From an uncultured Poribacteria bacterium (GTDB lineage Bacteria > Poribacteria > WGA-4E > WGA-3G): a stretch of DNA of 64,000 bases. Location: NCBI GenBank assembly GCA_951813565.1, contig OX638351.1:3104001-3168000 (forward strand), in the 5' to 3' direction. The position numbers and the translations under genes were made by a program. This document shows positions 42,375 to 58,153 of the stretch, piece after piece. The notes under the pieces were generated by a model. That model was given only the letters and a program-made list of their open reading frames with translations. It did not search any database and was not told the origin of the DNA. Position 1 is the first letter of the stretch; each line of letters opens with the position of its first letter.

Positions 42375-42403
42375 CCCTCTAATCCAATGAAGGACAGATG
42401 AAA

Positions 42404-42667
42404 ATGGAAGAAAACCATCACGCTGAGAGTTTGGAACATGCACGAAAATTGAACCGCTTGGCATGTAAGCAAATTTCTGATGGTAATCTTGAAGAAGCGA
42501 AAGAGAACTTAATTGAAGCGATACACATAGCGCCCAATTTGGCTGCACCGCACACCAATTTGGGCGTTTTGCATTGTTGGGATGGTGAGTTAGATGAAGC
42601 GATTGCTTTGCATCTCAAGGCACGACCTTTAAAAAGATCAAAACGCACACTGACAATGCAATGCTAA
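42404..42667 (+). pseudogene. Short or truncated TPR protein
   Basis: About two TPRs (GNLEEAK..AIHIAPN..HTNLG..GELDEAI..KA) followed by an unrelated tail. Confidence 0.5.
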
Positions 42668-43964: not shown

Positions 43965-44191
43965 CCATTTCTCTCATTTACATCTATCTCATAATCGTAA
44001 ACTGATTTAGAAAATACAACAATTGTGCGGTGAATTCACTGTATAATGCCATTTCTGAATGATCGCTTTTGATAAGCAAAAAACGCGTTTGTAGTCGCGC
44101 AATTCATTGCGCCTCTTCTTGTAGGAGTGACCTCCTGGTCGCGACTTTTAAACTATATGATCCTTGTAAACACCGAATGACAATGTCCAGT

Positions 44192-44326
44192 TATAGCGGA
44201 TTCTACAATTAACTGGACATCTGAGCTGTCCGAGGAAACTCCGATTCCCGACTATTAGTGGTTTCGTCGCGATTCGGAGATCGCTCCTACAGAATATATG
44301 TGAACTTATTTACATAATTTACTATA
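44192..44326. mobile_element. 135-bp MITE (copy 2) inserted at a TA inside the TIR of a related element
   Basis: The uninterrupted host GTCCAGTTAATTGTAAAATC is seen at 20881; here it is split with TA duplicated. Confidence 0.75.
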
Positions 44327-44632
44327 ATTGTAAAATCTACCATATCAATACCTTGTAGGCGCGCTGTTATAGTATTCAAGTGATTATAGGTTCGCTATAA
44401 AAGGTTTTAGATTTTTTGCACCTACACACTTGCCATCAACCGATGGTATATTTTGCTATCTTCCTGGGTATAAAATGTCTCAATAATTATAGGCTTCATC
44501 TAAATGCTACTGTAGCGTTTACGATTGCGTTGACATTCCTCCGCATCCATTATATAATCATAGAGATTTTACTGAATAGTACCGCCTCCAAGTAAACCTT
44601 TGCTAAAAGATGGTTGAATTTTGGGTAAGCAC

Positions 44633-45286
44633 ATGAATGAAAATAACGAGACGAGTCTAAAGACTGAAACAGATGACACAGCAAATTTGTCAACATCACC
44701 GGGAAACGCAGAAACACCGCAACCAAATGGTCTTGCAGAAATAAATCAGACTTTGGCTGCGTTGCAAGACCTATTTGAAAAGCAAATTGCTCGGAACCAA
44801 AATCAGACAGAGATGTTTGACAAAATGTACGCTGAGATGAAGGACTATAAAGAAAGTTTTTTGCTTGAAGTGCTTCACAAACCGATTATCCACAACCTCA
44901 TCCAACTTTACGATAGTTTTCTATCTATAGAATCTCAACTTGATGACATTCTCATCGGTAAAGAAAACAACATTCTCACGGATGAACTATCACAATATCG
45001 CCAGAATTTAGAAAACTTTCGGTATAAACTGGAAGAGGTCCTATACCGCATGGACGTGACACCCTATAAAGACTCCCCTGAAACACTTGACAGACAGTTG
45101 CACAAAACGCGCAAAGTAATTTCATCCGATGATCCAAAACAGGATCAAAAAGTAGCGGAAATTCACAAAATTGGGTTCAACTGGCGAGATAAAGTTTTCC
45201 GTCCGGAAGAGGTCACAATCTTTCGTTATACACCTTCCGCAGGTGAACCTCCTTTGAATAAGAAAGGAGATAACACCAATGGGTAA
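44633..45286 (+). CDS. GrpE-like nucleotide exchange factor
   Basis: Long N-terminal coiled coil, LIQLYD, LEEVLYRMDV, LDRQLHK, VAEIHKIGF..DKVFRPEEV (GrpE beta-domain pattern); overlaps the Hsp70 start. Confidence 0.8.
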   Translation: MNENNETSLKTETDDTANLSTSPGNAETPQPNGLAEINQTLAALQDLFEKQIARNQNQTEMFDKMYAEMKDYKESFLLEVLHKPIIHNLIQLYDSFLSIESQLDDILIGKENNILTDELSQYRQNLENFRYKLEEVLYRMDVTPYKDSPETLDRQLHKTRKVISSDDPKQDQKVAEIHKIGFNWRDKVFRPEEVTIFRYTPSAGEPPLNKKGDNTNG

Positions 45287-46874
45287 AGTTGTCGGGATTG
45301 ACCTTGGTACAACATTCTCTGTGATAGCACACATCAATGCGCATGGTCAACCAGAGATTATTCCAAATTTAGAAAGCGAGCGTATTACATCTTCGGTAGT
45401 CATGTTTGAGGACAACCTCGTAACTGTCGGAAAAATTGCCAAGCAGAATGCAAGAGCGGTTCCTGAACAGATCGTAGAATTTGTTAAACGCGAGATGGGG
45501 AAATCCAAAGTGGAATTCTTTCGCACATTTGAAGGAAAAGACTACTCCCCTGAAGAACTCTCTGCACTTATTATGACAAAACTCAAGCAGGATGCAGAGG
45601 CATATCTGAATGAAGAGATTACGGATGCGGTTATTACTGTTCCTGCCTATTTTCACGATGCAGAACGGGAGGCTACCCGCAACGCGGGGAAAATCGCTGG
45701 CTTGAATGTCTTACAAGTGCTGAACGAGCCGACTGCCGCCGCACTTGCCTACGGTATTGATCAATTAGGAAATAACCAAAATGTCTTCGTATTTGACCTT
45801 GGTGGCGGAACGTTCGACGTAACAATCATGAAAGTTTCTGAATCAGAGATACAGATGCTTGCAACGAACGGTGATCATCGACTTGGCGGTAAGGATTGGG
45901 ACGATAAAATTATCACGCACGTTGCAGAGATGTTTGAGATAGAACATGGCGAAAATCCGTTGGAGGATCTTCACACATACCAAGACCTTCAACTTGATGC
46001 CATTGCTGCCAAAGAATCTTTGTCTCAGCGGCAGCGGGCATTAATCGTTTGTGGGTATAACGGGAGGACAACTCGCGTGGAGTTGGAGCGCGGAAGGTTT
46101 GAGGAACTGACCGCTGAACTCCTTGAAAGATGCCGCGCCTTGTGTGATGTTGTCCTTTCTGAAGCAGACATGACGTGGACAGATATTGACAAAATCCTGC
46201 TGGTGGGTGGTTCAACTCGGATGCCGATGGTGCAGCAGATGATCGCCACAATCAGCGGCAAAGAGATCAACCCGCATGAAGTCAATCCTGACGAAGTTGT
46301 CGCAATTGGCGCAGCAATTCAGGGAACACTCCGCCAAATATCCGAAGGAAACACTGAAACAGTAGATATGCCTGACGCTGTTATTGAACGGTTTATTGGA
46401 CCAGACGGTGCGCCGAAAGTAACAGTAACCGACGGTGCCACACATAATCTTGGACTCGTTGTCCTCAACTCTCAACGTGAGCATATTATTCACGTCATGA
46501 TTCCTAAGATGACTGCTGTTCCGTGCGAAATTGCCGATAAGTTTTTGACGGTTGATCACAATCAACCCTCGGTTTTAATTGAGGTGGTGCAGGGACTTGA
46601 ACAGGACCAACTCAAGGACGAAATTGACCTATTTGATGAATATAAATTAGGTCAATGCACCCTTGAATTGCCATCAGGTCTACCACAAGGGTCGCCAATT
46701 GAAGTCATCTACAAGTATAACTTGGACCAGAATCTTGAGGTCACAGCTACATCTCTCTCTAACGATGGTGCTACGGCTATCTACGACATTTTTTCCATTA
46801 TTGATCGGCCAACACTCAATGAAGAGGAAGTTGCACAGGCAAAGACTGACCTACAAGACCTCGTAGTTGAATAG
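45279..46874 (+). CDS. Hsp70-family protein (non-canonical, lacks the alpha-helical lid)
   Basis: GIDLGTT, TVPAYF, NEPTAAA, DLGGGTFD, LVGGSTRMP, NPDEVVAIGAA, SBD-beta (TVDHNQPSVLIEVVQG); only 531 aa; linker VTVTD instead of VLLLD. Confidence 0.92.
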   Translation: MGKVVGIDLGTTFSVIAHINAHGQPEIIPNLESERITSSVVMFEDNLVTVGKIAKQNARAVPEQIVEFVKREMGKSKVEFFRTFEGKDYSPEELSALIMTKLKQDAEAYLNEEITDAVITVPAYFHDAEREATRNAGKIAGLNVLQVLNEPTAAALAYGIDQLGNNQNVFVFDLGGGTFDVTIMKVSESEIQMLATNGDHRLGGKDWDDKIITHVAEMFEIEHGENPLEDLHTYQDLQLDAIAAKESLSQRQRALIVCGYNGRTTRVELERGRFEELTAELLERCRALCDVVLSEADMTWTDIDKILLVGGSTRMPMVQQMIATISGKEINPHEVNPDEVVAIGAAIQGTLRQISEGNTETVDMPDAVIERFIGPDGAPKVTVTDGATHNLGLVVLNSQREHIIHVMIPKMTAVPCEIADKFLTVDHNQPSVLIEVVQGLEQDQLKDEIDLFDEYKLGQCTLELPSGLPQGSPIEVIYKYNLDQNLEVTATSLSNDGATAIYDIFSIIDRPTLNEEEVAQAKTDLQDLVVE

Positions 46875-47058
46875 GTAAAGACTCTTAAAATAAAACACCT
46901 TTATAGCAGTTGTAGGTTGGGTAGAACGGATACCTACAATAAAGTTAGGTGTTGAAGAGGGTTTTAAGATGCATGTGAAACTGAAATTTCTAAAAATGAG
47001 TGAAACCCAACACGTTATCATATAAGGGTTAGTTGGATTTCGCTATTCTATCTATACA

Positions 47059-47810
47059 AACGTGAGTTTGATAATTAACCAGAGCCATTCAATTCTCCAA
47101 TGATTTCTTTCTTTCCCAAGACTCCAAAAAATCGCGTCAACCACCATGCTGACAACAAAATGCACGCTCATCCAAGATGCAAAAACGTATCAACCCAACT
47201 TTTCCTGCAAACTTATTGTCAATATATTGGATATCTATTGTTCCTAACGCCACAAAAACCTCTGATCACTACATAGAACTTGGTATAATATCAGTATGAA
47301 AAGAGAAAACCGATCCCCAAACACACCGAAAATCGAAAGTAACTCTCTAATGCAAAGACGACAACGCAAAACTTATCAAAATAAAATATCTCCAGCAAAA
47401 GGAAACCCGTGTTCCTCAACGCAGATGAAAAATATAAAATCTAAATAAAATGTCTATAAACCCTTACATATACTGAGTTTATAGTGAATTTCAAAAAGTT
47501 GCCACGGTATGAAAAAAGTTACCGTATGGTAACTTTTTAAGGAGATGATTCCAATAAAATGAGAAGAAAAATACAATCAATTCGTGCATCTGGGAACGAT
47601 TTTTAGGTCCCAATTTTTCGACTAAAACCGATAATTAGACGAAAATTGAATGCCTCTGGATAATTAACAGGACAGAGGCAAATTGAACAGAGAACGGGCA
47701 TATTTGCTTAAAAAATCGTTATTTTGGTGTTTTTAAACCCCCTAAGTCCCCTTATCAGAGGAACTTTAAGAGGAAATGTGGAAGTCCTAACTATTTATCA
47801 AACTCACATT
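47059..47810. mobile_element. 752-bp non-coding MITE-like element nested inside a REP pair (46912-47887)
   Basis: TIRs AACGTGAGTTTGATAA / TTATCAAACTCACATT flanked by ATACA direct repeats; outer inverted GTAGGTTGGGTAGAACGG / CCGCTCTACCCAACCTAC. Confidence 0.65.
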
Positions 47811-47942
47811 ATACAAATAGTCATTGAAAACAGAAGTCCTTGTGAAATTTAATAAAGTTTGATCGTTTACCGCTCTACCCAACCTACGACGACTATCTTT
47901 AGGCAGTGGGTAATATCATGTTTGAACAGAAGGAATGAACGT

Positions 47943-49178
47943 ATGTCCAAACGTGAGGAATTTATATCATTTATCAATACCCTCAAAACTGCTTCCCCAA
48001 CAATTACCGATGAACAACGTAAGGGTTTCCTGCGATTAGGAGTCCAACAGCACGGTCTTACTGTTGATGAAGCGTCTAATATCCTTAATGCGGCTGGATT
48101 GGCTATCGGTGAAAGGGTAGATTATTTTGAAATATTAGGATTCTCAATTGCAGAAATACAAAGCTTAAACGAATCGGCTACCGCAAGTCAGGTTGAAGCA
48201 GCACACAAAAAACTTTATACTGCTTCGTTGAGGGCAGGAGGTCGTCCTCGTCCTGATGGTAGAACAGAAGAACAGTGGCGCGTACTCTTGAATCAAGCAC
48301 GTAATACGCTAATAGACCCGCAAAAACGCAGCGTATACGTGGCAACTCAACAACACGAAGAAAGTTTTATAGTCAAGGCATCAAAGCCCAAAAATCTTGA
48401 CAACATGGAGCTTATTCCCGCAGGCGAATTTGAAATGGGCAGCAATGATGACGAATCTTTAGAAGACGAACATCTTATACACACCGTTTTTCTTGACGCA
48501 TTCTATATAGACAAATATCCTGTGACCAATGCACAATATAAGGCATTTGTAGACGCTAACCCACAGTGGCGTAAGCACGACATACCTAAAAAATACCACG
48601 ATGTTGACTACCTAAGACATTGGCGTGGCAGCAGTTTTCCGAAAACTGAGGCTGATCATCCGGTGGTTAATGTGAGCTGGTATGCCGCGATGGCTTACGC
48701 ACAATGGCAAGGTAAACGTTTGCCCACAGAGGCGGAGTGGGAAAAGGCTGCGCGAGGCGGCGTCGAAGATCAAAAATATCCGTGGGGTGATTTTGCGGAT
48801 CCTTCTATGGCAAATTATGATTGGAACGTTGGCGACACCACACCTGTGGGAAAGTACCCACCAAACGGGTACGATTTATATGACATGTGTGGCAACGTAT
48901 GGGAGTGGTGTCTTGATGCATATCATGAAGGTGTTTCTATGAGTTCATCGCCTCAAAATCCAATTTCCGGTGCTAATACTATTGAATGGATTGCTAACCA
49001 TTTTTTAGATGTTGAATCAAACCGCGTATTACGCGGCGGTTCTTGGCGTATTCCTGCGTTGTTTGTGCGGACAGCGAATCGCAACGCAGAAACTCCATCT
49101 TTTTCACTCAATGTTATCGGGTTCCGTTGTGTCTGGGGAGTAACATCTGAAAGCATACCACCTCCTATTGAAATATAG
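47943..49178 (+). CDS. J-domain-like + FGE-sulfatase (SUMF1/C-type-lectin fold) protein, paralogue 1
   Basis: DYFEILG..EAAHKKL..RPDG..LNQARNTLIDPQKRSVY; IPAGEFEMG, PVTNAQY, RLPTEAEWEKAARGG, GNVWEW, RGGSW, GFRC. Confidence 0.88.
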   Translation: MSKREEFISFINTLKTASPTITDEQRKGFLRLGVQQHGLTVDEASNILNAAGLAIGERVDYFEILGFSIAEIQSLNESATASQVEAAHKKLYTASLRAGGRPRPDGRTEEQWRVLLNQARNTLIDPQKRSVYVATQQHEESFIVKASKPKNLDNMELIPAGEFEMGSNDDESLEDEHLIHTVFLDAFYIDKYPVTNAQYKAFVDANPQWRKHDIPKKYHDVDYLRHWRGSSFPKTEADHPVVNVSWYAAMAYAQWQGKRLPTEAEWEKAARGGVEDQKYPWGDFADPSMANYDWNVGDTTPVGKYPPNGYDLYDMCGNVWEWCLDAYHEGVSMSSSPQNPISGANTIEWIANHFLDVESNRVLRGGSWRIPALFVRTANRNAETPSFSLNVIGFRCVWGVTSESIPPPIEI

Positions 49179-49213
49179 GTAAGTCAGACCGATTCTGGAA
49201 AGAGAACTAACCG

Positions 49214-50578
49214 ATGTCCAAACGCGATGAATTCATTACAATTATTCAGGCAGTTAGAAATGCTTCGCCGACTATTTCGAATGAACAACGCAAAGGGTTC
49301 CTCCGACAAGCGGTACAGCAGCACAATCTTACTGTTGAAGAGGCGACTAATATCCTTGATGCGTCAGGATTGGTTATTGGTGCACAGATTGATTATTTTG
49401 AGGTATTAGGTTTATCTATCTCAGAACTTGAAAACCAAAGTGAATCGGTCATCGTAAATCGCGTTGAGACAGCACACAAAAAACTGTACAGTGCTTCTTT
49501 GAGGGCAGGTGGTCGTCCCCGCGCCGATGGTCGGACAGAAGAACAGTGGCGGAATGTCTTAAATCAAGCACGTGATGTGTTGAAAGATCCGCAAAAGCGA
49601 ACTGAACACATTGCAACGTTACAGGCTGAAATATCGCAACCTGTTGATCTTACCTCGCGACAGGAATTCCCTACACCAGAAAGGACATCTTTAGGAATCT
49701 CGACCCCAGAAGATATGTTGCTTATTCCCGCAGGCGAGTTCCAAATGGGAAGCAATAACGAAAGAGCAAAAGTCCGTAAAAAACCTGCTTGTAAAGTCTA
49801 CGTTGATGCGTTCTATATGGACAAATATCCGGTAACGAACGCACAATATAAGGTCTTCATCGATGCCAACCCGCGGTGGGGAAAGCCATCAAAACGGGAC
49901 GAGTGGAATAGGGTGAAAAAGATACTATCTATTTTTGGGAAATACCACGATGGAAACTACCTAAAACATTGGCATGGCAACAATTTTCCGGTTGGGAAGG
50001 ATGATCATCCTGTAACTCACGTCAGTTGGTATGCGGCGATGGCGTATGCGCAATGGGCGGGAAAACGTCTACCAACTGAAGCGGAGTGGGAAAAAGCAGC
50101 TCGCGGCGGATTAAAAGGACAAAAATACCCATGGGGGAATCTCATGGATTCAAATATGGTGTTTTGTGGAAAGGATGTTGGCAAGACCACTTCTGTCGGA
50201 AAATATCCCCCGAACAACTACGGTTTGCATGATATAGTAGGGAATGTCTGGGAGTGGTGTGTTGATGAGTATGTTCCGAATTTCTACTCTTCTGCACCGG
50301 TTCGGAATCCAGTTGCTGGTTTAAGCACAAAAAAGGAATTAGAGTTATTAATTTTCAATTTTAGGAACGTTTCAACTGATCGTGTATTACGGGGTGGGTC
50401 ACTGTTTACTTCATCAGAACCCATTCAGACGGCTATACGTCGTGGGCGTTCGCCACTTCTCACAGTGGTATATTCAACAAAACTCGTGACCTCACATTCA
50501 ACAAGGTTCGCTGCTAACATAGGTTTCCGATGTGCTTGGGACACACGGCTTAAGTCGAATTTTTATAACCTGTATTGA
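49214..50578 (+). CDS. J-domain-like + FGE-sulfatase protein, paralogue 2
   Basis: Same architecture as paralogue 1; loop motif is RAD. Confidence 0.88.
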   Translation: MSKRDEFITIIQAVRNASPTISNEQRKGFLRQAVQQHNLTVEEATNILDASGLVIGAQIDYFEVLGLSISELENQSESVIVNRVETAHKKLYSASLRAGGRPRADGRTEEQWRNVLNQARDVLKDPQKRTEHIATLQAEISQPVDLTSRQEFPTPERTSLGISTPEDMLLIPAGEFQMGSNNERAKVRKKPACKVYVDAFYMDKYPVTNAQYKVFIDANPRWGKPSKRDEWNRVKKILSIFGKYHDGNYLKHWHGNNFPVGKDDHPVTHVSWYAAMAYAQWAGKRLPTEAEWEKAARGGLKGQKYPWGNLMDSNMVFCGKDVGKTTSVGKYPPNNYGLHDIVGNVWEWCVDEYVPNFYSSAPVRNPVAGLSTKKELELLIFNFRNVSTDRVLRGGSLFTSSEPIQTAIRRGRSPLLTVVYSTKLVTSHSTRFAANIGFRCAWDTRLKSNFYNLY

Positions 50579-50633
50579 TCCCTACTGTGGATCCGTTTAC
50601 ATAATTTTTACGATAGAAACACCAATTTACGAC

Positions 50634-52010
50634 ATGTCTAAACGCGAAGAATTTATTTCAGTCATCAATACACTCAAAGCACTTTCCTCTACAATTACTG
50701 ATGAGATGCGCAAAGGACTTCTACAGCAAGCGGTACAACAGTATGGTCTATCTATAAGTGAAGCGGATGAAATACTTCAGGCATCGGGACTAATTGTTGG
50801 TGAAAGGACAAACTATTTTGAAGTTCTGGGATTTTCCATAGAGGCGCTTCAAGACCAAAGTGAACCCGCAATTGCAAATCGCGTTGATGAAGCACACAAA
50901 AAATTGTATAGTGAATCGTTACGTGCAGGTGGTCTCCCGCGTCCGGATGGTAGGACACAAGAACAGTGGCGGACTGTTTTAAATCAAGCACGTGATATCC
51001 TGAAAGATACACAAAAACGGGTTGAACACATTGCAACGTTACAGGCTGAAATCTCCCAAAGTGTTGATCCTATATTGTCAGAGGAACTTCCTATTCCTGA
51101 ATCAGAGGAACTTCCCATATCTGAACAGACATCTTTGAGTGTTTCCGTGCCAGAAGATATGGTGCTTGTCCCAGCTGGTGATTTCCAAATGGGAAGCAAA
51201 ATCGAACTGGGGAGTACACGTGAAAATCAAGAGCATACAGTCTACGTCGATGCATTCTGTATGGATAAATATCCAGTGACAAACGCACAATACAAGAGGT
51301 TTATTGATGCAATTCCAGCATGGCGCAAGTCATCAAACCGGAGGCGTCGGAACAAGCTAAGTATCAGGATGATCTCTAATGTTGATATGTATAAGTATAA
51401 CGATAGAGAATACCTAAAGAATTGGGATGGGAACAACTTTCCGAATGGAAAGGAAGACCATCCCGTCACTCATGTCAGTTGGTATGCGGCCATGGCGTAT
51501 GCAAAATGGATTGGCAAACGTTTACCGTCAGAAGCTGAATGGGAAAAGGCGGCACGTGGCGGCTTAGCCGGGCAAAAATATCCATGGGGTAACTCTTTGG
51601 ATGTAGATAAGGCATATAGTGATAAGAATGCTGGCGAAACTATTTCTGTAGGAAAATTTCCTGCCAATAACTATGGACTGTTTGACATGGTGGGGAACGT
51701 CTGGGAGTGGTGCCTTGATGCGTATGATCCAGATTTTTATACTACTTCACCACTACGGAATCCAATTGCAGGTGCAAACTCGAAGGAGGATCTTGATAAA
51801 TTAATTTCGAACTTCTGGGAAGTTACAACTGATCGCGTATTACGTGGGGGTTCACTGTTCACTTCATCAGAACCTGTTCAAACGAGTGTTCGATGTAGCG
51901 GTAAACCTATACGTACCAGCTTCCTCACCTCACTGTATTTATCAAGTTTTGTGGCGAATATTGGGTTCCGATGTGCTTGGGACACACAGCTTAAGTCCAA
52001 ATCTTTATAA
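50634..52010 (+). CDS. J-domain-like + FGE-sulfatase protein, paralogue 3
   Basis: Same architecture; start at MSKREEF (ATG 50634) by homology with the other paralogues. Confidence 0.88.
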   Translation: MSKREEFISVINTLKALSSTITDEMRKGLLQQAVQQYGLSISEADEILQASGLIVGERTNYFEVLGFSIEALQDQSEPAIANRVDEAHKKLYSESLRAGGLPRPDGRTQEQWRTVLNQARDILKDTQKRVEHIATLQAEISQSVDPILSEELPIPESEELPISEQTSLSVSVPEDMVLVPAGDFQMGSKIELGSTRENQEHTVYVDAFCMDKYPVTNAQYKRFIDAIPAWRKSSNRRRRNKLSIRMISNVDMYKYNDREYLKNWDGNNFPNGKEDHPVTHVSWYAAMAYAKWIGKRLPSEAEWEKAARGGLAGQKYPWGNSLDVDKAYSDKNAGETISVGKFPANNYGLFDMVGNVWEWCLDAYDPDFYTTSPLRNPIAGANSKEDLDKLISNFWEVTTDRVLRGGSLFTSSEPVQTSVRCSGKPIRTSFLTSLYLSSFVANIGFRCAWDTQLKSKSL

Positions 52011-52075
52011 CCTATTCTGATTTTTAGAGTGGATACTTTTACATAATTTTTACGATAGAAACACCAATTTACGAC

Positions 52076-53449
52076 ATGTCTAAACGCGAAGAATTTATTT
52101 CAGTCATCAATACACTCAAAGCACTTTCCTCTACAATTACTGATGAGATGCGCAAAGGACTTCTACAGCAAGCGGTACAACAGTATGGTCTATCTATAAG
52201 TGAAGCGGATGAAATACTTCAGGCATCGGGACTAATTGTTGGTGAAAGGACAAACTATTTTGAAGTTCTGGGATTTTCCATAGAGGCGCTTCAAGACCAA
52301 AGTGAACCCGCAATTGCAAATCGCGTTGATGAAGCACACAAAAAATTGTATAGTGAATCGTTACGTGCAGGTGGTCTCCCGCGTCCGGATGGTAGGACAC
52401 AAGAACAGTGGCGGACTGTTTTAAATCAAGCACGTGATATCCTGAAAGATACACAAAAACGGGTTGAACACATTGCAACGTTACAGGCTGAAATCTCCCA
52501 AAGTGTTGATCCTATCTTGTCAGAGGAACTTCCTATTCCTGAATCAGAGGAACTTCCCATATCTGAACAGACATCTTTGAGTGTTTCCGTGCCAGAAGAT
52601 ATGGTGCTTGTCCCAGCTGGTGATTTCCAAATGGGAAGCGATAATGAAAAGGCAAATGACCGTGAAAAGCCTGCACATACGGTCTATGTTGACGCGTTCT
52701 ATATGGATAAATATCCGGTAACGAACGAACAATATAAGGCGTTCGTAGAAGCCAACCAGCAATGGGGCAAACAACCCTCGAATTGGGGTAAACAGAACAG
52801 AATCAAAAAGAGGATGCTCTCTATATTCGAGAAATACCGCGGAGTTGGCTACCTAAAACATTGGAATGGAAACGAATTTCCGATTGCAAAGGCTGACCAT
52901 CCTGTAACTCACGTTAGTTGGTATGCATCAATGGCGTATGCAAAATGGGTTGGCAAACGTTTACCGACAGAGGCGGAGTGGGAAAAAGCAGCACGCGGCG
53001 GCTTAACAGGGCAAAAATATCCATGGGGAGATATTCTGGATTCAAACATGGTATATTGTGGAAAAGATGTAGGTGAGACCACTTCTGTTGGAAAGTATCC
53101 AGCGAATAACTACGGTTTGCATGATATAGTAGGCAACGTCTGGGAATGGTGTCTTGATGAACATGATGAAGATTTCTATTCTGCTTCGTCTGTTCGGAAT
53201 CCGGTTGCTGGTGCGAACACAAAAGAGGATTTAAATTTATTAATTCATGATTTTAGAAACGTTTCAACTGATCGCGTATTACGTGGGGGTTCACTGCTCA
53301 CTTCATCAGAACCTGTTCAAACGAGTGTTCGATGTAGCGGTAAACCTATACGTACCAGCTTCCTCACCTCACTGTATTTATCAAGTTTTGTGGCGAATAT
53401 TGGGTTCCGATGTGCTTGGGACACACAGCTTAAGTCCAAATCTTTATAA
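52076..53449 (+). CDS. J-domain-like + FGE-sulfatase protein, paralogue 4 (mosaic)
   Basis: N- and C-termini near-identical to paralogue 3; core resembles paralogue 2. Confidence 0.88.
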   Translation: MSKREEFISVINTLKALSSTITDEMRKGLLQQAVQQYGLSISEADEILQASGLIVGERTNYFEVLGFSIEALQDQSEPAIANRVDEAHKKLYSESLRAGGLPRPDGRTQEQWRTVLNQARDILKDTQKRVEHIATLQAEISQSVDPILSEELPIPESEELPISEQTSLSVSVPEDMVLVPAGDFQMGSDNEKANDREKPAHTVYVDAFYMDKYPVTNEQYKAFVEANQQWGKQPSNWGKQNRIKKRMLSIFEKYRGVGYLKHWNGNEFPIAKADHPVTHVSWYASMAYAKWVGKRLPTEAEWEKAARGGLTGQKYPWGDILDSNMVYCGKDVGETTSVGKYPANNYGLHDIVGNVWEWCLDEHDEDFYSASSVRNPVAGANTKEDLNLLIHDFRNVSTDRVLRGGSLLTSSEPVQTSVRCSGKPIRTSFLTSLYLSSFVANIGFRCAWDTQLKSKSL

Positions 53450-53510
53450 CCTATTCTGATTTTTAGAGTGGATACTTTTACATAATTTTTGCAATAAGGA
53501 GAGATTGACT

Positions 53511-56015: not shown

Positions 56016-56930
56016 TTACATTGGCAAACGGAGTTGATCAGTATACTGTCTGATCCGTTCGTTTGCCAATTTTATGTATTCTTCTTCAATGTCGTATCCG
56101 ATATAGCGCCGACCTGCTTTTACGGCACTCAAACAAGTTGTTCCGCTCCCACAGAATGGGTCTAATACTACATCTCCTACGAAGGTGTAGAGCTGAATTA
56201 ATCGATGCGGCAACTCTTCAGGGAAGGGAGCGGGATGACCGATACGTTTAGCAGATTCAGCAGAAAATGTCCAGACACTTTTTGTCCACTCTAAGAAATC
56301 CTCTTTACAGATAGAATTTTCTCTGTCATTACGCTGCCGCGAAAAGGAATCTTTTGAGAAAACGAGGATATATTCGTGAACGTCCCTTAGCACAGGATTT
56401 GCCGCCGATAACCAACTCCCCCATGCCGTTGAACTCCCCGCGCTCGCGGCTTTGTCCCAGATGATTTCCCCGCGCATATAGTAGCCGATGTCCAACATAT
56501 CTTCTATGATGCAACTATGTAACGGAATATAAGGTTTCCGACCTAAATTGGCGATATTAATGCACGCCCGACCACCAGTTACCAATTTATTATAGGTTTC
56601 GGCAAAAACAGCACGGAGGAGTTCCCTATATTCATCTAAAGAGAGATCGTCGTCATACTCCTTTTTCGCATTATAGGGAGGTGATGTAACCATTAGATGT
56701 ATGCTGCCATCTGGAATTTCAGACATCTGCTCACTGGAGGAACAATAAAGCTGGTCAAGATTTACTGCGGGAATTGGGTTTTCTATCCACGTTTCGGGTT
56801 TCGGAGGATCCTGATTAGCGTAGAGTTTACCCTTATAAAATTCACTGGAGTCGTGATTGATTCTTCCGGATGTTCCGAACGCGCTTGTCTGTGTGCCTTG
56901 TCTTTGAGATTCCGAGTTTGTTTTATCCAT
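56016..56930 (-). CDS. Orphan N4/N6 DNA methyltransferase (beta arrangement, SPPY)
   Basis: VTSPPY precedes HPAPFP and VLDPFCGSGTT; no adjacent restriction endonuclease. Confidence 0.9.
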   Translation of the reverse strand: MDKTNSESQRQGTQTSAFGTSGRINHDSSEFYKGKLYANQDPPKPETWIENPIPAVNLDQLYCSSSEQMSEIPDGSIHLMVTSPPYNAKKEYDDDLSLDEYRELLRAVFAETYNKLVTGGRACINIANLGRKPYIPLHSCIIEDMLDIGYYMRGEIIWDKAASAGSSTAWGSWLSAANPVLRDVHEYILVFSKDSFSRQRNDRENSICKEDFLEWTKSVWTFSAESAKRIGHPAPFPEELPHRLIQLYTFVGDVVLDPFCGSGTTCLSAVKAGRRYIGYDIEEEYIKLANERIRQYTDQLRLPM

Positions 56931-56944
56931 ATCTTTTAACCACC

Positions 56945-58153
56945 TTAATACCGATCTGGGAACCAAAAAATTACATCGCGTTTGGGAAACAACGTTCCTA
57001 AAAACGTGGCAACCTCTGGAGATACTGAACCATCCGAATTCATTTGCTCCCATCCTATTTCACCAAACAGCAGTTGCCAAAACTCTTCTTCGCTGATTTT
57101 CAAGTTCACTACATCTGCTGCATCATCTACAATTTGAATCGTGTTATTACCGTCGTAACGTAACACTGCTTGACGGTTATTGACAACAGGAAATTTGACA
57201 GCAAGTGACGAGAACGATTCCTCGGAAGCAGCAATTTGTGATTCCCACCCCACCACGAGACGCCGCAAAAGCACAGATAAATCAACAGCATAGAGCATCA
57301 TTGCTGTATCGGTGATTGGGTTTAAATCACTGTTGCAAACTGTTTTTAGACGTTGGACAAACGGATGTTGCGGTGAAAATATACCTTTTATTTCTTCAAC
57401 GCTATTTGCTGCACCTGCTTGTCCAAGGTGGAATGCAAGCGCGTCCAAAACATCTGGATTATCAGGTAGATACCCTACTTCGCGCACCTTCACACATTTT
57501 CCATCTATCTCATAGTTGAGATATCCACCTATGTTGCCATTCTGCTGTGCAACAACGGTCGGGAGAATACCACGAATGCGCGAGGGTGCCATATCCCAAT
57601 AAGCGCGTGTCCGAGAAATGGCACCGCTCTGTTGTGCATTAGCGGTGTCGTATATTGATGCTACGGCATCTAAATCCGTCTCTAAGTTAAATGCTCTAAT
57701 CTGCCAATCAGGTAGTCTTTCAGTCGTCGTCGAGTTAAACTCTATTTTGAAACCGTGAAGAGGTAAGGATGTCCACCCGAATCTGTGATAAAATTCTTCT
57801 GGTATGATGGTAAACAGTACACCGAGGTCACATCCTGCCGTCTGCAGATAGCCGATTGTGTCTCGCATAAGCGCAGACGCATACCCAACCCCACGATATT
57901 TTGGATCCGTGCAGACACCACCGATACCCCCCATTGTCACAAGGGATGCGCCAATTCTTATCCTACGTTCCCAGACGCGCAAAGTTGAAACAACCTGTTC
58001 GTTCACTACAACCACTCGAGTCTGTGAAAGCCTGTAGCTGCTATCACCTCGCACATACTGCCAATAGCGTTCATGTTGGTTCGGATTGAACGCGATGCAG
58101 TTGAGTTTAACAACCTGTTCTAATTCTGATTCACATGCTGCTCTAATTTCCAT
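56945..58153 (-). CDS. GNAT acetyltransferase, Eis-like
   Basis: GGIGGVCTDPKYRGVGYAS, FYHRFGW, a second GNAT-like domain and an SCP2-like C-terminus. Confidence 0.8.
   Translation of the reverse strand: MEIRAACESELEQVVKLNCIAFNPNQHERYWQYVRGDSSYRLSQTRVVVVNEQVVSTLRVWERRIRIGASLVTMGGIGGVCTDPKYRGVGYASALMRDTIGYLQTAGCDLGVLFTIIPEEFYHRFGWTSLPLHGFKIEFNSTTTERLPDWQIRAFNLETDLDAVASIYDTANAQQSGAISRTRAYWDMAPSRIRGILPTVVAQQNGNIGGYLNYEIDGKCVKVREVGYLPDNPDVLDALAFHLGQAGAANSVEEIKGIFSPQHPFVQRLKTVCNSDLNPITDTAMMLYAVDLSVLLRRLVVGWESQIAASEESFSSLAVKFPVVNNRQAVLRYDGNNTIQIVDDAADVVNLKISEEEFWQLLFGEIGWEQMNSDGSVSPEVATFLGTLFPKRDVIFWFPDRY

Follow-up and report, generated by a model that had tools for sequence, protein, structure and literature searches.

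A lidless Hsp70 encoded with a GrpE-like protein and J-fold adaptors with FGE-like heads in an uncultured Poribacteria bacterium

Organization of the Locus

The gene cluster described here occupies positions 44633-53449 of a 64-kb window from contig OX638351.1 of an uncultured Poribacteria bacterium (the window is the whole stretch of DNA that was analyzed, and all positions are its coordinates). The cluster is genuine and comprises, on the plus strand, genes for a GrpE-like protein, an Hsp70 that lacks the lid, and four paralogous proteins, hereinafter adaptors, each of which combines a leader, a J-fold domain and a non-catalytic head of the formylglycine-generating enzyme (FGE) fold. The divergent GrpE-like nucleotide exchange factor (44633-45286; 217 aa; PF01025, 46.7 bits against a cut-off of 25.8) is the second GrpE of this genome, and its open reading frame (ORF) overlaps that of the 531-aa Hsp70 (45279-46874; PF00012, 402 bits) by 8 nt, as an earlier note on this DNA had described. 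The same note placed four same-strand paralogues behind the Hsp70 gene; the number and the strand are right, but the array starts only after 1068 nt that include a non-coding repeat element of 752 nt (47059-47810), whereas in the two closest relatives the gap is ~120-270 nt. The gap is bounded by an imperfect inverted repeat (46903-46929 and 47870-47896). The repeat element has a 99.9% identical copy elsewhere in the genome and seven further copies of ~580 nt with 93-98% identity, has no counterpart in the closest relatives, and probably represents a recently active family of miniature inverted-repeat transposable elements.

Adaptor 1 (47943-49178; 411 aa) consists of a leader (residues 1-56), a J-like domain (residues 57-137, ~48111-48353) and a class A FGE head. 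Adaptors 2 (49214-50578; 454 aa; RAD variant of the J-like domain), 3 (50634-52010; 458 aa) and 4 (52076-53449; 457 aa) have class C heads; the ATG start codons are at 47943, 49214, 50634 and 52076. Adaptor 2 is the orthologue of the last array gene in the closest relatives (loci L001 and L002; 85-87% identity). Adaptor 3 has an FGE core of its own and shares the N-terminal part and the C-terminal end with adaptor 4, its recent duplication or gene conversion partner: a 602-nt block with a single mismatch (50596-51197 and 52038-52639) and an identical block of 193 nt (51859-52051 and 53298-53490) enclose different cores. The four genes are thus not the four independent receptors that had been assumed. 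In L001 and L002, where the Hsp70 is 96-97% identical, the seven adaptor genes represent six or seven classes. The array in the window is a reduced and re-amplified one that has been split from Hsp70 by the repeat element. The read depth over the array varies in public contigs, which might reflect copy-number variation but does not amount to a copy count. Small SNase-like genes and genes resembling DUF2971/PDC-S31 are inserted between adaptors in four relatives (L002, L003, L004 and L010).

A perfect match to the sigma-70 promoter consensus (TTGACA-17-TATAAT; 44530-44558, plus strand) lies 75 nt upstream of grpE; this is a consensus match only, and there are 108 such perfect sites genome-wide. 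A perfect match in front of grpE is present in 12 of the 16 same-genus loci of this type, and the site scores 11-12 of 12 in 13 of all 25 loci with grpE. With regard to heat-shock control, no CIRCE-like site (up to two mismatches allowed) was detected genome-wide.

The Lidless Hsp70 and its GrpE

The protein is a member of the Hsp70 superfamily, with an actin-like nucleotide-binding domain (NBD) that contains the catalytic residues and with the beta subdomain of the substrate-binding domain, but it ends where the lid would start. The lidless character recognized in the earlier note is borne out by the alignment and by the PF00012 coverage (model positions 1-508 of 599), the AlphaFold2 (AF2) model being too poor to use (pLDDT 56.5). 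Besides the lid, the protein lacks the GrpE-signature loop, R167 (DnaK numbering here and below) and the hydrophobic linker of housekeeping DnaK, and it scores below all NCBIfam cut-offs for DnaK and HscA (420 bits compared to 648 for DnaK). Neither branching in quick trees nor neighborhood (isc or djl genes) assigns it to HscA or HscC. The genome encodes a separate full-length DnaK, a housekeeping grpE (152 bits) adjoining dnaJ, and four J domains above the Pfam cut-off, in agreement with the notion of a dedicated Hsp70. Several relatives additionally contain Hsp70-like ORFs of 800-1200 aa that have diverged strongly (27-33% identity) and are often arranged in tandem pairs (e.g., G007:C1:3000984-3004728 and G005:C1:1572329-1576037).

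The residues with which DnaK reads the J domain are R167, Q378, L391, P419, E206, D211, E217 and D477 (PMC8215388, PMC13012618). Among the 19 orthologues of the lidless Hsp70, the R167 position is occupied by Q (17) or H (2) and the E206 position by K, R, S or Q; E217 is replaced by Q (18) or K (1) and D477 by K (16), S (2) or C (1), and the interdomain linker reads VTVTD as opposed to VLLLD in DnaK. The host DnaK retains R167, E206, E217, D477 and the LLLD linker; the D211 loop is absent from both proteins. All 19 orthologues keep D8, T11, T12, K70, E171, T199, P143, R151, D393 and K414, as well as Q378, P419 and L484. Judging from these alignments, the catalytic set and the allosteric relay are retained and the J-reading residues are altered, in a protein under strong purifying selection (ratio of nonsynonymous to synonymous substitution rates, dN/dS, of ~0.03-0.04 in comparison with two relatives).

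At all 41 loci, the GrpE-signature loop is shorter by six residues and neither E264 nor E267 is retained. Both cleft salt bridges are missing. Loss of the loop and the salt bridges is also described for HscA and HscC (PMC8215388), and in HscA such a pattern gives 700-fold faster ADP release. Consistent with the deleted loop, grpE is missing, without any remnant, beside 14 of the 41 Hsp70 genes, and three of the five genomes tested among those with grpE-less loci hold only the housekeeping GrpE. This distribution does not support GrpE as an obligatory part of the self-contained module proposed in the earlier note; in relatives, it is dispensable. In genus g13 (L022-L032 and L036), a gene for a ~300-aa ankyrin-repeat protein is located upstream of Hsp70, and 11 of the 12 loci have lost grpE.

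The J-Like Domain and the Leader

The N-terminal part of the adaptors is modeled by AF2 (105 sequences, pLDDT 86) as a three-helix leader (residues 1-56) followed by a helical hairpin (residues 57-138). In a wide structure search with a best Z of 9.0, named J proteins occupied 18 of the top 23 rows, the remaining five being chains from large complexes; 2ctq aligned over 71 residues with Z 8.4 and rmsd 2.5, Z values that are not decisive alone for helical domains. The top 16 Foldseek rows were all DnaJ/Hsp40, although with a best E of only 0.075, and comparison of the J-like profile with six canonical J domains by hhalign gave 95% (E 3e-8). Direct sequence searches were too weak alone: with the Pfam DnaJ model, 24 of the 105 members reached an E of 1 or better but remained far from the cut-off, and the best E in a search of the PDB was 0.15. 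The distant members P0099, P0104 and P0110 do match Pfam DnaJ. The model, the structure search and the profile comparison concur that residues 57-140 adopt the predicted J fold, a four-helix hairpin, as had been proposed from sequence.

The reading of RPD or RAD as the counterpart of the HPD motif is, in contrast, incorrect. In the register set by helix II, HPD falls on L96-R97-A98, and in the hhalign alignment on A98-G99-G100; the HPD site thus holds L-x-A-G-G, and RPD/RAD is located further along the loop, with D105 aligned to D40 of DnaJ. R103 and D105 do not vary among 107 copies from 19 genomes, and neither do Y92, S95, L96, G99, W112, L116 and N117, whereas residue 104 is P in only 46. 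HPD itself is found in none of the 172 J-like copies from all fetched loci, compared to 160 that contain RxD. The position equivalent to R22 of DnaJ is E or D in 87 of the 107 adaptors, a possible charge swap with the Hsp70. With a recognizable J domain in which HPD is replaced non-conservatively, and without the HPD at the end of helix II that functional J proteins of classes A-C possess, these domains are type IV (pseudo) J domains as defined in PMC13254874.

The leader, a module of 55 residues not mentioned in the earlier note, shows only weak, helical structure matches (Z up to 5.6); the ESM Atlas contained no usable match for the leader and only leads below 0.9 for leader and J-like domain together. 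It appears to be mobile in its own right, being located after the J-like domain in L059, after an NBD in L054, and behind ZorD (see below). In this genome, the combination of leader and J-like domain is confined to the four adaptors. Prediction of a complex between the Hsp70 and this combination, run without controls, yielded scores of 0.00, 0.46 and 0.10 against a mark of 0.32 and gave no answer.

The Adaptor Heads

All four adaptors have C-terminal PF03781 heads (198-227 bits), and the best PDB matches of the head include SUMF1 and SUMF2. The CxxxxC pair that follows the RGGS motif in catalytic FGE (SUMF1) occurs in none of the 74 readable heads (15 of the 89 heads were not matched by the pattern), in accord with the alignment to FGE structures, and no hydrophobic N-terminal or membrane segment was detected in the four adaptors. 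The earlier description of catalytically dead FGE-fold proteins without a signal peptide is therefore accurate. The 89 full FGE heads in the array loci fall into orthologous classes arranged in a conserved order, and eight further adaptors in these loci have WD40 heads. Heads of the same class share 77% identity across genomes compared to 53% for different classes within one genome; at a 70% threshold, 10 of 19 genomes have a class A head. In total, 111 proteins with the module were found among 1.84 billion representatives, and the heads of the 75 that were scanned include FGE, WD40, ankyrin, HEAT, TPR, Ig-like or peptidoglycan-binding domains or membrane segments.

FGE-type C-type lectin (CLec) folds are known as targets of diversity-generating retroelements (DGRs), and the heads had accordingly been likened to variable receptors. 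However, in the region equivalent to the variable region (VR) of DGR targets, dN/dS within classes is 0.03 for class A and 0.25, 0.09, 0.41 and 0.16 for the other four sets. No reverse transcriptase is encoded near the locus, and the three matches in the genome are at two distant places; a template repeat was not separately searched for. The ordered orthologous classes and the purifying selection indicate that the heads are not hypervariable in the manner of DGR targets; they form a fixed repertoire that is altered by gene gain, loss and conversion.

Linkage and Distribution

Of 41 genomes, 19 contain the Hsp70 orthologue (86-100% identity), and exactly these 19 also contain the J-like module, in 4-11 copies each; all belong to one genus and are thus kin rather than independent cases. 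A J-like adaptor gene is located directly 3' of Hsp70 in 18 of 18 fetched relatives, so the linkage of the FGE genes to this Hsp70, for which the earlier note had called for a neighborhood survey, extends to other genomes. Of 176 genomes of the phylum, 61 contain the J-like domain: 33 of the 39 in one of the two large genera, 22 of the 65 in the other, and, beyond the family, 2 of 64. Hsp70 is located upstream in 15 of the 20 loci that were retrieved around J-like matches; the remaining five represent isolated genes or a detached array, and the respective genomes encode Hsp70 elsewhere. The complete genome G009 retains only Hsp70 residues 366-476 (111 residues) beside a sulfatase scrap, and no adaptors. 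The named homologues of the Hsp70 with 63-81% identity come from Candidatus Poribacteria, a group that consists mostly of sponge symbionts.

In genome G005, the array is split (L012 and L040), with nine further adaptors ~600 kb away from Hsp70 and the first adaptor; the latter two are followed by genes that may represent a CRISPR-Cas set. The linkage extends to single chains. Protein P0085 (a single record) joins an Hsp70 NBD to leader and J-like domain, and in P0085 and L054:4331-6313 an NBD without a substrate domain is fused to the leader together with the J-like domain or a piece of GrpE. These fusions recall the 'HSP70 without peptide-binding domain' of Kaur et al. 2020 (PMC7159879).

Deeper Loci and Comparison with Known Systems

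Deeper loci (L019, L020, L050, L054, L055 and L059) encode an Hsp70-vWA protein, GrpE, the lidless Hsp70 and a J-like fusion; L052 has the same arrangement without the vWA protein. The Hsp70-vWA/GrpE/Hsp70/J-like form is also found in two Latescibacterota loci (L063 and L065) with ~65% identity to Poribacteria, which suggests transfer between phyla. In all these loci, the J-like fusions contain Ig-like domains and membrane or repeat parts. The lidless Hsp70 and Hsp70-vWA are sister clades (SH-aLRT 99) in quick trees; in one of these, the deep nodes are weak or open. More distant loci in Selenomonas, Collinsella and Aminicenantes, from one genome-collection scan that yielded 30 loci, combine GrpE, a lidless Hsp70, Hsp70-vWA and a J-like protein without HPD with DO-GTPase2 and GAP1-N2; two of the three distant J-like proteins contain a zinc ribbon and fn3 domains. 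The J-like profiles of the window type and of the GAP1-N2 loci match each other in hhalign (82%).

A set of this composition has been predicted computationally as the second theme of the GAP1-N2 DO-GTPase systems, namely, a dedicated HSP70 with GrpE and a J-domain fusion, frequently accompanied by another HSP70 (Kaur, Burroughs, Iyer and Aravind, eLife 2020, PMC7159879). The core of that theme (HSP70, GrpE and J-domain fusion in one neighborhood) is present here and has thus been known as a prediction since 2020, so that the designation of the system as undescribed does not hold in a strong sense. No GAP1-N2 protein, DO-GTPase or fn3 protein is encoded in the window locus, however, and GAP1-N2 (PF20013) was found in none of 41 genomes, with a positive control in Corynebacterium (the DO-GTPase itself was not searched for genome-wide). 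Of the components of the theme, Hsp70-vWA, GrpE, the lidless Hsp70 and the J-like fusion are all retained in the deeper loci of Poribacteria and Latescibacterota, whereas the window form has also dispensed with Hsp70-vWA, and in place of a single J fusion there is an ordered array, with up to 13 soluble adaptors per genome that have FGE or WD40 heads. Descent from the Hsp70s of GAP1-N2 systems is not resolved by the quick tree, with its weak deep nodes. Given this and the absence of GAP1-N2 from the 41 relatives, the module is predicted to resemble the chaperone arm of the GAP1-N2 theme in operation but lies outside that system.

Other likenesses are more partial. As in HscC-DjlB/DjlC and HscA-HscB of Escherichia coli (PMC8215388), a specialized Hsp70 is encoded beside its own J proteins, here with predicted selective pairing; HscA and HscC differ in that R167 and the lid are kept, an own GrpE is absent, their branches are separate, and their J proteins retain HPD or HPE. 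Like the type IV J proteins Pam16 and DnaJB13, the adaptors have a J fold with non-conservative loss of HPD; in the account of these two proteins in PMC13254874, no dedicated and reciprocally changed Hsp70 is encoded alongside, whereas the adaptor family has expanded, evolves under purifying selection and is linked to a single Hsp70. The EACC1-protease defense modules (PMC12642450), to which lidless DnaK-like domains are fused, likewise use lidless DnaK and FGE in modular anti-phage architectures, with the difference that here no protease or pore effector is present, the Hsp70 is stand-alone and the adaptors are separate. FGE/SUMF1, pFGE/SUMF2 and the CLec targets of DGRs such as TvpA share the fold and the core motifs of the heads, which differ from FGE/SUMF1 and the DGR targets by the lack of catalytic cysteines and of any sign of diversification. 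PADLOC 2.0 contained no family for GrpE, Hsp70 or adaptor 1, NCBIfam no fitting family, and the literature searched, with most subscription journals outside its coverage, no publication on the locus or the architecture.

Proposed Mechanism and Alternatives

Given the established anatomy, fold, residue changes, linkage and selection, we propose that the module is a private Hsp70 targeting machine that remodels selected targets, including a role in surveillance or defense, and estimate the probability of this reading at about one half. Docking, ATPase stimulation, orthogonality, nucleotide release, targets and role would then be as follows. Each head (FGE-fold here; WD40, ankyrin, TPR or HEAT in relatives) would bind one fixed intracellular target, and the adaptor would dock through its J-fold domain on the neighboring Hsp70, pairing with the latter rather than with DnaK because the interface appears to be remodeled in both partners. 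Triggered by the J-like domain, the Hsp70 would hydrolyze ATP and grip the target only briefly, for want of a lid; without the cleft salt bridges, intrinsic nucleotide release would be fast, and GrpE would only tune the cycle. The predicted outcome is remodeling or disassembly of selected protein complexes, as opposed to bulk folding, most likely in surveillance of, or defense against, invading elements via conserved targets.

Several observations hint at such a role. The Hsp70/GrpE/J-like core is also found inside GAP1-N2/DO-GTPase loci. In two genomes of the same genus, complete Zorya I operons (L037:1182-9231 and L038:10217-18281) encode a ZorD, consisting of a helicase and an Mrr nuclease, that carries leader and J-like domain at its C-terminal end. 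The repeat and FGS domains that serve as heads are of kinds that conflict systems typically contain, lidless DnaK and FGE are described as sensors in protease-effector modules (PMC12642450), and the distribution within the two large genera is patchy. Other observations weigh against the proposal as a whole or against defense in particular. Loss of HPD abolishes stimulation in all systems covered by the cited reviews (PMC8215388, PMC13254874), and 12 of the 172 J-like copies lack RxD as well. In the tree comparison, loss of R167 and deletion of the GrpE loop are common in unrelated lidless Hsp70s, so these changes need not reflect co-adaptation to the J-like domain. No toxic effector was found in the window locus, GrpE, Hsp70 and adaptor 1 are without a PADLOC match, the heads evolve under purifying selection in a conserved order, and the chromosomal site is fixed, with an adjoining sulfatase at 32 of the 41 loci.

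A more specific version of the proposal appears doubtful: J domains without HPD would trigger ATP hydrolysis in a co-adapted Hsp70 by a natural orthogonal J/Hsp70 code, and in Poribacteria a plug-in panel of up to about a dozen fixed receptors together with the socket on the Zorya ZorD nuclease would dismantle or switch defense-related complexes. Whether HPD-less J domains are accidents or selected is called enigmatic in a 2026 review (PMC13254874); here, such domains form an expanded family that evolves under purifying selection and is without exception linked to one Hsp70 with changes in the residues that read HPD, and with three small, soluble proteins the question is open to a standard ATPase assay. 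Stimulation, if real, would amount to a second chemistry of J-Hsp70 activation, would provide a ready-made orthogonal chaperone pair, and would for the first time make the Hsp70 arm of the predicted GAP1-N2 conflict systems accessible to experiment.

The same machine could instead serve housekeeping, in client-specific folding or maturation of the cell's own proteins, for instance sulfatases, with the dead FGE heads reading nascent sulfatase peptides. FGE and pFGE/SUMF2 recognize such peptides, and the resemblance of the heads to SUMF1 and SUMF2 fits this idea, as do the 46 sulfatase-like ORFs of the genome (38 with the C-x-P/A-x-R motif), the orthologous sulfatase located upstream at 32 of the 41 loci, the conservation of heads across species, the strong consensus promoter and vertical inheritance. 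This promoter is, however, located between the sulfatase and grpE, the sulfatase is missing from the deeper loci, which feature Ig/membrane, ankyrin, HEAT or Sel1 partners, and relatives with the same lifestyle do without the module (6 of 39 same-genus genomes). A lidless Hsp70 is, moreover, a poor foldase, and the fusion of leader and J-like domain to ZorD is hard to accommodate, all of which renders housekeeping unlikely.

The absence of HPD from every copy would also fit a J-like domain that, with the leader, is a passive tether or homotypic adaptor in the style of Pam16 and other type IV J proteins, recruiting Hsp70 or organizing it and its partners into a complex without stimulating its ATPase. 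According to PMC13254874, no stimulation by type IV J proteins is known, and the mobility of the leader as a separate module (L059, L054 and ZorD) is reminiscent of effector-associated adaptor domains. We nevertheless consider this improbable: the relay and the catalytic set of the Hsp70 are intact under strong purifying selection, no fetched locus of this type contains a canonical J gene, and H88, Y92, S95, L96, G99, R103, D105, W112 and N117 of the J-like domain are invariant or nearly so in 107 copies.

A panel of DGR-type or otherwise hypervariable receptors engaged in an arms race is a very remote prospect. The head fold is that of DGR targets, the array content differs between genomes, and adaptors 3 and 4 have undergone recent conversion, but the VR-equivalent region is conserved within classes and is identical in adaptors 3 and 4 except for one codon, and together with the lack of a nearby reverse transcriptase this largely refutes the idea. 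Chance neighborhood or misassembly, which the repeat element between Hsp70 and the array and the long identical blocks in adaptors 3 and 4 might suggest, is refuted by the same gene order in 18 of 18 relatives and in other genera and by the assembly of both unique middles, of adaptor 3 (51168-51855) and adaptor 4 (52610-53294), in four of four public runs (two studies, which may include the source sample).

Other Features of the Window

The interval between the sulfatase and grpE contains, at 44040-44340, short repeats of two families that are represented by tens to ~200 copies genome-wide. The TPR gene at 42398-42667 encodes only 89 aa after a deletion of ~1 kb, compared to 387-389 aa in the closest relatives. 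On the other side of the array, past a GH95 gene, a type II DNA methyltransferase is encoded (56016-57053; PADLOC MTase_II, 432 bits).

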